In this document: positions 36,692 through 62,011 of the stretch, piece by piece
Position numbering within the stretch: position 1 is the first letter of the stretch
How the letters are laid out: each line of letters begins with the position of its first letter
Assembly: GCA_020137815.1 (NCBI GenBank)
Contig: CM035358.1
Coordinates: 5,518,001-5,582,000, forward strand
Length of the DNA: 64,000 bases
Reading direction: 5' to 3'
Source of the DNA: Hormiphora californensis
Lineage: Eukaryota > Animalia > Ctenophora
The notes under the pieces: model-generated
What the model was told of the DNA's origin: nothing
Database searches by the model: none
What the model saw: the letters and a program-made list of their open reading frames with translations, nothing else
Translations under genes and position numbers: made by a program

Positions 36692-36783
36692 CAGGAACCG
36701 ACCGAATTAAGTAAATACCAATCAGAACTCGGTATTTAGGTCACGTGACTGATTATCAACCAATCAGGGGCCAGTATTTCCTG
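36692..36783. mobile_element. hAT-type MITE (CAGGAACC family), copy 2
   Basis: CAGGAA...TTCCTG flanked by a perfect 8-bp TSD CTTTAGAG. Confidence 0.85.
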
Positions 36784-37067
36784 CTTTAGAGTCGGCACAG
36801 ACTGATCGTGTACTGGTCAAGATCTTGATCAACTCACACAGACTACGCAGTACACACTGAGTAGTACACAGGTAAGGTGAGAATCCTTGCTACGCCTTTT
36901 ATAGTTTGGGCCGGGGCTTATGTCTCCCTTCAAAAGGAGCATTAGTGTCTAAAGACTGCAGTATGCGGAGAACTATACCTGGAAGTCAGTGGAGTTGGTC
37001 TCGAGCATGGTCCCGTAGTGTCCCCAGCAACGGAGATGTCCCCTGGGCGACCAAGCTGGCACCAGGT

Positions 37068-38017
37068 CTCCTCCCTCTAGAGCAAGGATTCAGTGAGTAC
37101 CCCTCACAGGAACACTGGCAATAGAGGGGGGGGCCAGGAGCCACAAGTGAAGCCAGGGGGACAGATCTGAGGCAGGTGCACGCTGCGGGGCCGGTGAGAG
37201 GCTGACCCCCACAGGCATACCAACAACTATACCTGGAAGTCAGTGGAGTTGGTCTCGAGCATGGTCCCGTAGTGTCCCCAGCAACGGAGATGTTCCCTCA
37301 GGCCTCCAAGTGGGCACCAGGTCTCCTCCCTCTAGAGCAAGGATTCAGTGAGTACCCCTCACAGGAACACTGGCAATAGAGGGGGGGCCAGGAGCCCCAA
37401 GAGAGGCCAGAGGGGACAAATCTGAGGCAGGGGCGTACTGTAGGGCCGGTGAGAGACAGACCACCACTGCAGGCACTCCACAAACCGACACTGTGGGCGT
37501 GGCCAGTGGAGATGGCCCCGGGACGAGGCCCAGTGGCGGCACCTGCGCAGAGAAGGCACCCTCAGGCGACCAAGTGGGATACCAGGACTCCGTGAGAGAT
37601 CAGGTACCCCCAGTGACGCCAGTGGGAGCAATCTTGGCGCGGGAGCATACCACGGGGTCAGTCCAGGGAACCGTCAACACAGGTACACGCCCAAAACCCA
37701 TTAAAACAATATAGTTATGGCTAGAGCAAGGATCCAGTGAGAATCTCTCACAGGAACACTGGCAATAGACTCAACTAAAACTAACGACTAGAGCAAGAAT
37801 TCAGTGAGAATCTCTCACAGGAACGCTGGCAATAGTCATGACCAAAACCAACGTCACCCGGTACACAACAAGGATCCAATGTGAAGTTACATTCACATAG
37901 GAACACTGGTTGCTACCGGAATGACAAAACCACCCCCTCTTGGCCAGTAACAAGGATCCAGAGTAATGCCACCCAGTGGTACACGCTCGTGGAACACTAG
38001 TTACAAACCAAACGAGG
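37068..38017 (+). ncRNA. Array of six copies of a conserved structured RNA motif in the LINE 5' UTR (function unknown)
   Basis: Near-invariant CAAGGAUYCA and GGAACACUG strands, with covarying closing stem and inner hairpin in each copy. Confidence 0.65.
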
Positions 38018-38507
38018 TAGAACCAATAGTGAATTATCACGACAGGAGGGTTCGTGCAGTAACGCGCCATGACCGCCCTACTACCAAATAGGATTGGTTA
38101 TGGCGCTAGCTGAGCGCGCACTACATTGATAACACCATGTCACCTTGTCTGATCCTCTCCTCTATCTCTCTAACCTGTCCCCTCCTCCAGAGGGGAGAGC
38201 AATAAAGAGTGAAGGAGGAGAAGGATAAGGAGAAGGCACGATCTCTCAAGCTTTAGCTCTATACCGGTCTCTACACATCTCAACACCACCATCCCCGCTA
38301 TCTGCCCCATGGGAAGATAGTGGGAAGGAGGAGTAGAAATATGGTAGCCACCGGACAGTCAGTATTACTACTTATACTTTTAGGCTGTAGGGGTGATTTA
38401 CTGTCGTCCCCCAGGTCACGGAGCCTTAATACCATGACCATGAGGCAGTTCATATTTCCATTTTATGTTAGGGCATTTCATTACTGCTCCTGCTCCCACC
38501 GTATTCT

Positions 38508-41500
38508 ATGGGTGATCATTGTTTCTCATTTATTTCCACTCCGAGTGAGAACTCTCACTCTACTCAACATCAAGATACAGGTGGAGCACTCTCCCCACAA
38601 CCTCAAACACAACCCCTCCGTTCAGCCCAAAACCCACTTAAGAATTCCGTCCACAACGGAAACGCTAAAGCAGGTAATGGCGCTCATAATGGAAACCCAG
38701 CCCAAATCCTAATTAAGAATTCCGTCCAAAACGGAAACGCTGAAGCAGGAAATGGTGCTCGGAAAGGGAAAACAACACAAAATCGTCTAGCCCGCAAACC
38801 GAAAGAGAATTCCGCCCCAACCGGAAACGCTCAAAAGGGAAACGGTGCAAAAACGGTAGAAACAAATCCTCCGCCAAAGACTTCCTCTGACACCCGGAAA
38901 CGGGGACAGATTAGGGTGACTCAAATCAACCTAAACAAAAGTCCTGACGCGTGGGATGACATCATATCCTCAAAACTAACCCAATCCGAAGTGATTCTGG
39001 TCCAAGAACCACCTTTGATTGGAAAACAAAAGAGAATAAAATCTAGCAATGGGTACACGGCGGTCTATGACAAGACCGCTGAAAGGCCCAGAGCAGGGAT
39101 TATGATTCACAAAAACATATCTAAGCATGTGTTCCTCCTAAACAGTCTAACTGATGGAGACACAGTCACAATTCTCCTGAAATTGGGAAATAAGGCCTCT
39201 ATTCTCAGCTCCATTTATATGGGCAGAGGAATGGAATGCCCTCCTCCTAAGTTCAAAGAGATAGTTGATTACGCAAAGATAAACAACCACGCCCTAGTCC
39301 TAGGATCAGACGTAAATGCCCACAGCACAGCCTGGGGGAGTGTACGATTCGATCCAGAAGGAACAACTAGAGGTGAAGCTCTCCTAGACAAAATAATACA
39401 AGAAGATTTGCATATCTCGAATGTAAATAATGCAATAACGTTTGATAATGGCAGATGGGAGAACGTAATCGACCTAACCATAACAAACAACTCAGCAGTC
39501 GACTCTATAAGAGAATGGCAAACCATCAAAGGAGCATGTCGGTCAGACCACGTCCCCATCACATTCGTTATGGGCGACATGGACGGCAGAGACATTCGCA
39601 CCTTTCAAAACATAAAGAAAACAAATTGGGGCCAATATCGTGATATAGCAATCAGTGAAATGGAGAAAAGTAAAACTCTAAATTCAGAAATCAATACGAT
39701 GGAAGAATTAGAAGAGGCTACCAAAACCATAACTGAAATCATGATAACGGCATACCAAAAAACCACTCCGACAACATACGTTTCATCTCAAATTAAAGAC
39801 CCGCCGTGGCTCACGGAGGAGGTCGAAAAGGCGAGACTAGAAATGCTAGAAAAACTAGAGATAGCTCAAGACACCAAAATGCAAAAAGACTGGGCCCTTG
39901 CCAGAGCTGCTAGAAACAGCCACAGTAAGATACGAGTATATTCCAAGAGAAAATGCTGGAAAGCATGGACGGAAGAACTCGACGCCTTCTCTGATGCACA
40001 AAAAATAAGCCATGTCATTAAAACCAGTGAAGGTTGTAAACTGAACTGTGTAAACGACAAAGACGGCAACATAACAAGCTCTCCGAAGGAAACACTGCTA
40101 GCAATGGCAGACGTCCACTTCGGAGACCACAACATCACAAGACCATCAACCCAAGACTATGATAAGATTGGTCGCGGGAAATGGTCTAATGAAAGAACAT
40201 TCTCAACAACACGCATCATTAAAGCCCTACGCGAATTCAGGCCCCTAACCGCAGCGGGCCCGGATAGCATAAGGCCAATAATGATGCAGAAAATAGCCGA
40301 TACTTTTGCGAAATACTTCGCAAAAATCGTAACAGCATCGTATGAACTAGGAAAAACTCCAACACTATGGCAGGAAGCGGAAGCAATCTACCTACCCAAA
40401 CCAGGGAAAGGAGATTACCGCCAGCCAAAATCATTCCGAACGATAACCCTGGCATCCAACCTTCAGAAACTTGCTGAAAGGTTGGTGCTTTGGCACATCG
40501 AAGCGGATCAAAAAGTCCACAAAAAACTCAATAAATCCCAATACGGCTTCAAGAGGGGAGTCTCCACCGAGACAGCCCTCCACAAAGTAGTAAGGAAAAT
40601 TGAGAAGACCCTAATGAACCAAGGCATAGCGTTGGGCACTTTCCTCGATATCGAGGGAGCGTTCGACAACGTTGCCTTTAAAGCTATCGAAAGAGCACTC
40701 CACGCCAAACTCCGTGATAAACGGACAGTTGACTGGATAATGTTCACAATCACCAACCGAAAGGTAACAACAAAACTGCTGGGAGAATCGTTAACGATCA
40801 TGGTAACGAGAGGGTGCCCCCAAGGCGGCATACTCTCTCCATTCTTATGGAACCTAGTCATGGATGATCTCCTCAACCACAGTAAAAAGGAAATACCAGG
40901 TGACCTACAGGGATTCGCCGATGACCTAAGTCTCCTGGTAACAACAACAATGCCCCCTTCCAAGGCAGGCCCCTCGGTGGATATTCTTCCACTAAGGGAC
41001 GCTACTCAAAAGGGCTTGACGGCAATCAATAAGTGGTGCAAGACAGTGGGACTAAAGCTTAGTGCTCTAAAGTCCCATATTGTTATCTTCACCCATCGGC
41101 AAAACGTTAAAATCAATGACCCGATTAAAATCGGGGGAAACTCCATAAACACCGTGAGCTCCACCAAATTCCTTGGTCTTACCCTAGGACAGCAAGTTGA
41201 ATTGGAACGAGCACATAGTGAAACAAATAAAGAAATGCAAAAACATCCTAATGCAGTGTAGAAGAGTTGTAGGCCCCACGTGGGGACTTAACCCAAAGAC
41301 CGCATCCTGGATATACACAACAATAGTCCGACCAGCTCTTTCCTATGGAGCAATGGTATGGGCAAACGCCATGCTTACAAAAACCAACCAAGACAATATG
41401 ATCAAACTCCAAAGAATGGCGCTTAAGATGGTTACGGGGGCCCTCCCCACGACCCCAGCGTCAGCATTGGACAAGATTACAAACACGACACCAATAACAG

Positions 41501-42597
41501 AACATCTTAGATTCTGTGCGGTGAAAACAGCATACACTCTGATGGCCACTGGGCAGTGGGAAGGCCCAGTAAAATCAGACCTGAAAAACCCCAAGAAGTT
41601 CACATCCCACGCCAACACTGTGAACAAAACACTAAGAACCTTACCGTCTGAGTGGACACACGATCTAACCACCCCTGTGCTTTCCCTAGACAGGGATTTC
41701 CTAACGGAGATCCCGGACAGGGGGAGTTACAAGGAGATGGAAAGTGAGTTTACCACTGTTATATACACGGATGGATCTAAAATAAACGACAATGCGGGAG
41801 CTGGACTCACCATCTGGAAAGATGGAGAAGAAACAACCCAAAAGTCATTTAACCTAGGCCCGCACATATCAGTGCCAGCCTCAGAAATGTTTGCCATACA
41901 ACAAGCAACACAAACCCTGCTGGACAGTGGAACTGCAAATGAGCGGGTCCTAATAAACTGCGACAGCCAGGGTACCATAAAAAGCCTAGACACCACCACG
42001 TCCAGGTCAAAAACCACTCTGAAAACAATATCAAACCTCAACACCCTATCAATTTGGAACAACGTCACAGTAAGATGGATCCCAGCCCACCAAGGGCATC
42101 ACGGGAACGAACTTGCTGACGCTCTGGCCAAAAAAGGTGCTCAAAATACTTCAGAAGAAACCCTAATCCCAATCCCCAAAGCTGCAGCATACGCAGCCCT
42201 AAGGAACAAGATTAAAACCGGTAACAGGAAAATATCAAACCACATGGATATGATATGGGCTGACCGATTTGGGAAATCTCTGAAAAACATGACTAGAAGT
42301 AATCTAAGAGCTGCCACGCACCTTCTCACGGGACATGGCAATCTAAACTACCATATGAAAAAACTGAAAAAAGTCAAAACCACAACCTGCAACCTGTGTG
42401 GGATGGAGGACGAAACTGTCAAACACGTACTCACAGAATGCCCACTACTGTGGAAACTTCGACAAGAAGTATTCGATAAACTGTGCGTGACTTTGGACGA
42501 CATAAGACACCACCTGCCCTTCCAAAAAACCGTCACGTTTTACCGAAGGGCGGAGAAACTACTACACCCCGAGGACCCTCACCCGTCCTCTAGGTAG
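38508..42597 (+). pseudogene. LINE ORF2 polyprotein (AP endonuclease, reverse transcriptase, RNase H, CCHC-type finger) split by one +1 frameshift
   Basis: QINL, VQEP, SDVNAH, IDLT, SDH (APE); FLDIEGAFD, GCPQGGILSP, FADD (RT); YTDGS, DSQ, WIPAH, GNELADALAK (RNase H); LTGH, CxxC...H...C. An extra G at ~41187 breaks GLTL-D-SKLNW (ORFs 38508-41261 and 41197-42597). Confidence 0.93.
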
Positions 42598-42877
42598 AAA
42601 ACACCACGACTCCAAGAAGTACACCCCAGGAATCTAGAATTTCTGGTCGGGGTACCTCAAGGCTGGGGAACGTAACCATTGTGCTACATCCCTTCATCTC
42701 AGCCCCTCACGGGGCTGAGACAGCCTCTACGAAGAAGAAGAAGAAGAAGTACACAGATTGATCAAGATTGATCAAGATATGATCATGTGATCAAAAATCA
42801 GGCCAAATTAAACTGTATATATTGGTCTGATAAAACACTACAATATTGGTCCAATAATATCAATCCTTGCTTATAGA

Positions 42878-50913: not shown

Positions 50914-62011
<11,098 letters not shown>

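Follow-up and report, generated by a model that had tools for sequence, protein, structure and literature searches.

The locus studied here raises two questions: whether six short, similarly built units lying upstream of the reading frame of a ctenophore LINE represent a selected RNA structure, and what such a structure might do in an element showing no recognisable ORF1. The window—i.e. the whole stretch of 64,000 nucleotides taken from contig CM035358.1 of Hormiphora californensis (assembly GCA_020137815.1; positions 5,518,001 to 5,582,000)—had previously been described from its letters alone, and this initial annotation proposed a covarying and probably undescribed RNA motif, serving as a ribozyme, an IRES module or a protein-binding array and perhaps substituting for the missing ORF1.

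The host LINE and its leader

The element extends from 36872 to about 42749 and is a 5.9-kb LINE with a single ORF of the APE-RT-RNase H type. Its main parts, except for the two RNA structures described below, are as follows:

36863..36871, + strand: 5' copy of the 9-bp target-site duplication (the same 9 bases are found at 42748-42756, overlapping the end of the tail)
36971..37479, + strand: two tandem 254-bp monomers, continued by a partial third one to ~37591 (82% over 369 columns), with one motif copy per monomer
38043..38126, + strand: long leader hairpin (z -2.9), directly 3' of the ~200-nt gap of the window copy
38143..38236, + strand: long pyrimidine/purine leader hairpin (z -4.8)
38508..42597, + strand: single ORF with a low-complexity N-terminus, APE, reverse transcriptase, RNase H and a Cys/His motif (domain search)
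42731..42756, + strand: (GAA)6 tail with the 3' copy of the target-site duplication (sequence reading)

The APE and RT domains, the short-repeat tail and the target-site duplication identify the element as a non-LTR retrotransposon. In contigs of the runs X5 and X8, the element gives way to unrelated flanks at 36872, and in one further X5 contig at 36870; taken together with the target-site duplication, these insertions fix the first base at G36872. A frame change near 41190-41260 disrupts the ORF of the window copy; in an intact relative (P0003; 1361 amino acids, 90-95% identical), the frame begins at the same methionine and reads through. Near-identical fragments of the element were found under Pleurobrachia bachei accessions, the closest relatives at the protein level are other ctenophore and marine-metagenome proteins, relatives of 95, 64, 57 and 43% protein identity being on record, and the best match of the endonuclease among solved structures is the TRAS1 ORF2p. 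The domain order and the TRAS1-like endonuclease are in line with the R1/LOA group, a tentative placement based on these two features; LINEs of that group with RNase H share with the element both this order and the short-repeat tail, the difference being that no ORF1 is seen here.

The element had been called ORF1-less, and upstream of the ORF on the + strand the longest ATG frame indeed covers only 123 amino acids and gives no Pfam match. The statement should be limited to the window copy, since about 200 nt or more, present in X5, are absent from it at 38038/38039. Extra sequence at the same place is also found in a diverged version of the element, designated here organism B, which is represented by contigs of the runs X8 and X12 (a second organism) and of the seawater run X13. 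The leader is 1.6 kb long and contains 20 upstream AUGs, the distance between the end of the array and the AUG being about 490 nt in the window copy and about 700 in intact copies.

Several further observations concern this part of the element and its surroundings. The segments 38039-38161—which forms a long hairpin—and 38334-38426 seem to be common to other subfamilies, as indicated by a higher contig depth and by a separate 1878-nt contig that is 90% identical; they are considered candidate sites of the true initiation element, close to the AUG. The N-terminal 135 residues of the protein vary among the relatives and had no match anywhere searched, nothing exceeding 0.79 in the ESM Atlas. A 75-bp tandem repeat at 38623-38848 encodes a repeated Asn-Gly-Asn-Ala together with basic patches in this N-terminus, and the relatives of 1334 and 1361 amino acids may differ by approximately one such unit. 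The X5 depth on the 254-bp monomers is ~3x that of the downstream leader, hinting at more monomers per element in that run, although depth does not equal copy number. In the flank, at 36717-36779, there are two 21-nt repeats of CCAAT-box-like sequence, 42 bp apart; they are situated 90-150 bp upstream of the insertion and represent a possible upstream promoter for the window copy. Finally, the junction at 36869-36877 resembles a 5' splice site (CAG/GTAAG), a likeness that may be due to chance since the flanks of other insertions end in A.

The six-copy array and its conservation

All six units of the array could be located in the window on the + strand, exactly where they had been placed originally:

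37068..37133, + strand: motif copy 1, inside the first 254-bp monomer (fold, model match)
37323..37387, + strand: motif copy 2, a duplicate of copy 1 (self-repeat comparison, fold, model match)
37712..37777, + strand: motif copy 3; inner pair 37738-37750 is U-A in the window and G-U in organism B
37786..37837, + strand: motif copy 4, whose core has A at 37798 and G at 37825, two variants found also in organism B
37858..37919, + strand: motif copy 5, representing the second of the stem designs; U-A at pair 37862-37915 in the window, C-G in organism B
37936..38017, + strand: motif copy 6, third stem design with a longer apical arm (fold, organism B comparison)

Each unit consists of an outer stem, an invariant C-G pair, a 5x6 internal loop, a 3-bp UYC/GGA helix, an A without a partner and, among the window copies, an apical arm of variable length (14-29 nt). 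The loop is purine-rich, with AAGGA opposite ACACUR, the exception being copy 4 with its two core changes (AAGAA opposite ACGCUG). The central strands, regarded initially as unpaired throughout, are thus unpaired in the 5x6 loop, whereas their UYC/GGA portion forms the 3-bp helix in all six copies, its variable pair being C-G in three of them and U-G in the other three. The stems quoted for the individual copies are present in the sequence, and the linkers between the last units, described as A-rich, are composed of 80-88% A+C. Every unit folds as a single imperfect hairpin (z -2.3 to -5.7), and the exact core pattern occurs in five copies in the window and in none of 100 shuffles. With a model built from the six copies, no seventh copy was detected in the window, the next match reaching 13.5 bits in comparison with 52.8-83.5 bits for the training copies.

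Concerning the covariation between the copies, the six units cannot be counted as six separate examples. Copies 1 and 2 are near-identical within the 254-bp tandem duplication, copies 3 and 4 represent a 67-bp duplication, and copies 1-4 have one common inner stem design, which leaves three independent designs. The copy number of the array is tied to tandem duplication, as revealed by the self-comparison of the window. In the model-fitted alignment of the six copies, 82% of the cells pair (29-44% in the slid controls) and 8 of the 18 pairs change on both sides, it being understood that such an alignment leans towards structure and that its six copies are related by duplication. Folding energy offers no support for the idea that G-U wobbles favour the sense strand, the + strand being lower in two of the six copies, equal in one and higher in three. 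When copies 3 and 4 are folded together, the prediction is a single long rod in which they exchange halves.

A test across organisms was based on 70 pairs predicted from the window alone and compared with organism B, which differs from the window in 27 listed positions over 37712-37982. Both sides have changed in four of the 70 pairs, and three of these four still pair: 37738/37750 (U-A to G-U), 37786/37837 (G-C to A-U) and 37862/37915 (U-A to C-G). If the same changes are placed at random, 0.39 such pairing-preserving cases are obtained on average (P about 0.004). Additional changes were read by hand: the flanking pairs 37784/37839 and 37782/37841 of copy 4 swap cleanly in organism B, the closing pair of copy 6 goes from C-G to U-A if the loose end of the X13 contig is taken as the partner, and copy 6 shows four changes on one side only, each exchanging a G-U pair for a Watson-Crick pair or vice versa. 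It is these changes, along with the two-sided one in copy 3 reaching G-U, on which the assignment to the + strand rests, since the G-U intermediates pair on that strand alone. On the other hand, three to five pairs in all are broken in organism B—the outer two of copy 5 (37858/59), two in the outer stem of copy 6 (37940/41) and perhaps an inner one (37963). The covariation support comprises one divergent lineage and three stem designs.

Between the window and organism B, two of the 70 core-strand bases differ, in comparison with 21 of 140 bases of the adjacent upstream leader (Fisher P 0.009). The variant core of copy 4 is retained in organism B and, therefore, does not reflect simple decay. 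It should be noted that an interpretation of the copy 4 core changes as a G.A-to-A.G swap was weakened by copy 5 of organism B, where the core base at the same place (37873) is C. Copy 5 of organism B also carries a 9-nt insert creating a new 5-bp apical helix, and, with the apical arm varying so freely in length, it is best seen as a scaffold. The change at 37738/37750 breaks both pairs of the swapped fold of copies 3 and 4 and thus favours separate units. In contigs of the run X7, copy-1-type sequence alone was covered.

The array is, based on the pairing kept across organisms, a selected RNA structure, and it belongs to no catalogued family, as the initial annotation had anticipated. The Rfam search that had been suggested as a check returned no family at the gathering threshold for the units, just weak hairpin matches at E 0.1-10. 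Fits to the HDV, hammerhead, twister, kink-turn, FMN- and ATP-aptamer and SRP-loop cores failed on the letters, again with no Rfam match.

Outside the element, scanning with the array-core pattern retrieved 5 viral and 58 metagenome loci, all 63 of them single-copy, scoring 12.8-23.9 bits and giving no tblastn match to LINE proteins; for these reasons they were treated as chance matches. One of the viral contigs (L005:289-349) folds into the outline of an array unit, probably also by chance, given as a single copy with 17 bits. Searches with the LINE protein for a close relative including its leader yielded no such locus; 21 distant LINE-like loci in bacterial bins and 18 viral loci with RNase H only were obtained, the former giving no match at E 1 to either the array model or the hatchet model (see below).

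The hatchet-like fold at the 5' end of the element

A second structure, 200 nt upstream of the array, had escaped the initial annotation, in which the cores tried were those of the HDV and hammerhead ribozymes:

36872..36977, + strand: hatchet-ribozyme-like RNA with P1, L1, P3, L3 and P4; predicted cut between 36871 and 36872

The first base of the element, G36872, is at the same time position +1 of this fold. Hatchet ribozymes are described as cutting just 5' of P1, with any base tolerated at -1 and G cleaved more slowly (PMC6561176, available text), and in the accessible part of the original report their P1 has 3 or 6 bp (Li et al. 2015; PMC4604424). In the window, P1 has 6 bp (36872-77/36885-90; pair probabilities 0.89-0.90) with the cut site at its 5' base, P4 being located at 36924-39. 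The position of the hatchet cut immediately before P1, coinciding here with the target-site junction, supports the predicted cleavage between 36871 and 36872, and the fold would lie wholly downstream of the cut, as is needed for the head of a retroelement.

In comparison with the hatchet family (RF02678), the window fold shares the 6-bp P1, the same 7-nt L1, P3, L3 with its extruded U bases, the variable P4, G29-G31 and G63, so that the docking bases of L1-L3, P3 and P4 are in place; it differs in its setting in an animal LINE and in its lower half, both strands of which carry 13-nt inserts, J1/2, P2 and L2 being rewired. A helix of 7-8 bp (36900-07/36970-77) closes the fold at a probability of 0.5-0.75 and is displaced by these inserts from the place of the canonical P2, directly behind the 3-nt J1/2. 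Among the core positions C20-A22, U28-G31, G63-G66 and A73-A75 (numbered as in PMC6561176), only 5 of the 11 that could be placed match: A21, G29, G30, G31—the proposed general base, corresponding to G36915—and G63 are kept, whereas C20, A22, U28, C64, A65 and G66 are changed and A73-A75 are not placeable. U20 is seen in one of 16 natural hatchets. With five of eleven core bases kept, the fold has to be considered a hatchet variant rather than a member of the family, and the Rfam Hatchet model gave no match to 36872-36977 even at E 10, its gathering threshold being 51 bits.

A three-block pattern taken from the window, found there once and in none of 100 shuffles, retrieved 39 viral loci and one bacterial locus, and all 20 that were tested of these 40 proved to be Rfam Hatchet (70-100 bits). 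The window fold agrees with the invariant letters of 16 phage hatchets at positions 7-13, 32-37, 39 and 57-62, most of them being pattern positions, while outside the pattern a further eight conserved bases agree, too (A3, G6, U7, C14, U17, A21, C40 and G55); its G38-C56 pair occurs in two of the 16. A model made from these hatchets ranks the window fold first in the window (19.6 bits, E 0.06), but since they were fetched with a pattern derived from the window, it leans towards that fold. A pattern written for the window's own variant, with the long spacer and U at position 64, found no viral loci, and a looser two-block pattern was abandoned as too unspecific (120 loci). Two of the phage contigs (L068:290-606 and L101:290-605) contain two hatchet ribozymes ~200 nt apart, the upstream one having a shortened L2 loop.

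The 5' 140 nt of the element exhibit ~3 differences in organism B, and in one X8 contig G30 is changed (36914). In an X5 contig of a second subfamily, with a loose end at 36926, the same core strands enclose another P4 stem. Judged from this comparison of sequences, the 5' fold is hatchet-like and probably hatchet-derived.

Possible roles of the head and the array

The best explanation, to which we give roughly even weight as a whole, is that the array is a selected RNA module in an element whose head likely cuts itself and whose array likely acts as a multivalent protein-binding site. The element would be transcribed from upstream, and its hatchet-like head would cut between 36871 and 36872, leaving an uncapped 5'-OH end. 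This self-cleavage, predicted from the fold and the junction, is rated as fairly probable. An uncapped leader of 1.6 kb with 20 upstream AUGs would not be normally scannable and would need cap-independent initiation, by which the ORF would be translated. The array would then serve as a multivalent module aiding such translation or the loading of the RNP. Its fixed purine-rich loop, free stems, six copies, A/C-rich spacers and expandability correspond to the layout of a multivalent binding site, so that the binding of a protein seems likely. Who the partner would be is a more tentative matter: the translation-initiation machinery, by analogy with cap-independent translation enhancers, is put forward as a possible first candidate, the element's own protein—performing the RNP-loading job of ORF1p—as an unlikely second, and a host localisation factor as a very unlikely third. 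Given its distance from the AUG (see above), the array is far away for the core of an IRES, which argues against that role. Speculatively, RNA modules might take over, in the whole LINE family, the functions of a cap and of the ORF1 protein, with an active, rewired hatchet-derived head and an array recruiting ribosome-loading factors or the element's own enzyme.

As far as the cited sources could be consulted, HDV-like ribozymes head the R2, L1Tc, RTE and baggins LINEs (PMC6765202) and twister T-variants head Perere-3 (PMC8501958); these heads release the RNA and support translation (PMC6765202, PMC13725137, PMC8501958). The present element resembles them in having a fold of the self-cleaving type at the exact 5' junction beside the target-site duplication and a long, presumably uncapped leader for which cap-independent translation would be required; it differs in the class of ribozyme and in the array, the available texts mentioning no six-copy internal-loop array. 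With regard to plant-virus enhancers, the I-shaped (ISS) ones, for which binding of eIF4F via a conserved G of the internal loop is characteristic, also present a conserved internal loop on a short stem-loop and act at a distance on uncapped RNA, and the BTE 17-mer begins with GGAUCC, contained likewise in array copies 3, 5 and 6 (PMC5382211, available text). By the description given there, the array has no stem-loop I and no multi-helix hub, the resemblance to BTE being confined to six letters in three of the six copies; it also differs from both types in its animal retroelement, its 5' position and its six copies.

The suggestion that the array units are self-cleaving, each being a small ribozyme of a previously undescribed class with the two-stem lantern shape of the twister-sister-like kind, has in its favour that a loop with the same strand lengths (5 and 6 nt) separates two stems whose sequence is free, that its longer strand contains a CA step, that the setting is a LINE, and that such a minimal fold is, in the text available, sufficient for cleavage in the twister-sister-like ribozymes of human LINE-1 and OR4K15 (PMC11620745). 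The letters, however, differ: G7-C8-U9-C10-A11-A12 opposite G36-C37-U38-A39-G40 in that class (PMC11620745, as far as consulted) versus ACACUR opposite AAGGA here, with another position of the CA, six copies and an extra fixed 3-bp helix. The array shows no match to G-C-U-C-A-A / G-C-N-A-G with its C10-A11 cut on the + or the - strand, and no Rfam twister-sister match. Moreover, six efficient cuts would remove the 5' end, yet the insertions begin at 36872 and so keep the upstream RNA, and the core is not constant, with base changes in copy 4 and in copy 5 of organism B. The ribozyme role is, on these grounds, quite unlikely. Slightly more doubtful still would it be to regard the units as modules of RNA-RNA docking or oligomerisation that compact or cluster the RNA with no specific protein, an idea to which the predicted exchange of halves between copies 3 and 4 and the ability of multivalent, flexibly linked arrays to self-associate lend some credit; it is made very improbable by the unconserved apical loops, offering no kissing partner, and by the two-sided change at 37738/37750 in organism B, supporting a local fold. 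Least probable of all is that the repeats function at the DNA level, as palindromic transcription-factor sites belonging to an internal promoter, or that local duplication generated them neutrally. It would suit this reading that four of the units are simple duplicates and that the folding energy is similar on both strands; it is contradicted by the two-sided compensatory changes, the G-U intermediates, the insert lengthening a stem and the stronger conservation of the core relative to its surroundings.

The most serious rival of the preferred reading, albeit still a rather improbable one, concerns the head: the hatchet-like fold might be non-catalytic, the 254-bp monomers being an internal promoter, the RNA capped and the upper half kept as a folded end, with the array used for RNP assembly or localisation. 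The monomers of mouse L1 serve as an internal promoter, and exact 5' ends of elements also arise from internal promoters; here, tandem monomers directly follow the fold. Of the 11 core bases placed, six are non-canonical, including C64 and G66, which are needed for cleavage. In the text available, C64U abolished and G66A nearly abolished cleavage of natural hatchets (PMC6561176). What stands against a non-catalytic end is that the junction falls on the exact hatchet +1 base and that G30, G31, G63 and the L1/L3 docking bases are kept in two organisms and a second subfamily.

That a LINE can be headed by a ribozyme is already known in principle; what the sources searched do not contain is a hatchet-type head whose core is rewired, or the six-copy motif. 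The original report, in its accessible part, has hatchets from metagenomic DNA only (PMC4604424), and a later survey places them in viroid-like circular RNAs (bioRxiv 2022.07.19.500677). Neither a hatchet in a eukaryotic genome or retrotransposon nor a description of the array was found in the literature searched, subscription papers, Repbase and supplements lying outside that search. If the proposed cleavage is true, the element would provide the first case of hatchet-type catalysis in an animal genome, and the hatchet would join HDV, hammerhead and twister as a fourth type of ribozyme recruited by retroelements; the latter three are the classes that a 2026 paper, in its available text, links to retrotransposons (PMC13725137). 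No biological role is assigned to hatchet ribozymes in the available texts of PMC4604424 and PMC6561176, and a hatchet-like head at the first base of a LINE would give the class one, i.e. the making of a defined 5' end. With the upper docking half kept and half of the 'essential' core changed, the fold also represents a natural test of the bases doing the hatchet chemistry. The array motif, for its part, is compact (about 50-80 nt), naturally covarying and outside any catalogued family; it offers a direct test of uncapped-RNA translation and of protein loading in ORF1-less LINEs and could yield a portable translation or binding element.

Elsewhere in the window, at 53193-54434, there is an unbroken frame of 413 amino acids encoding an ATP:guanido phosphotransferase (phosphagen kinase).
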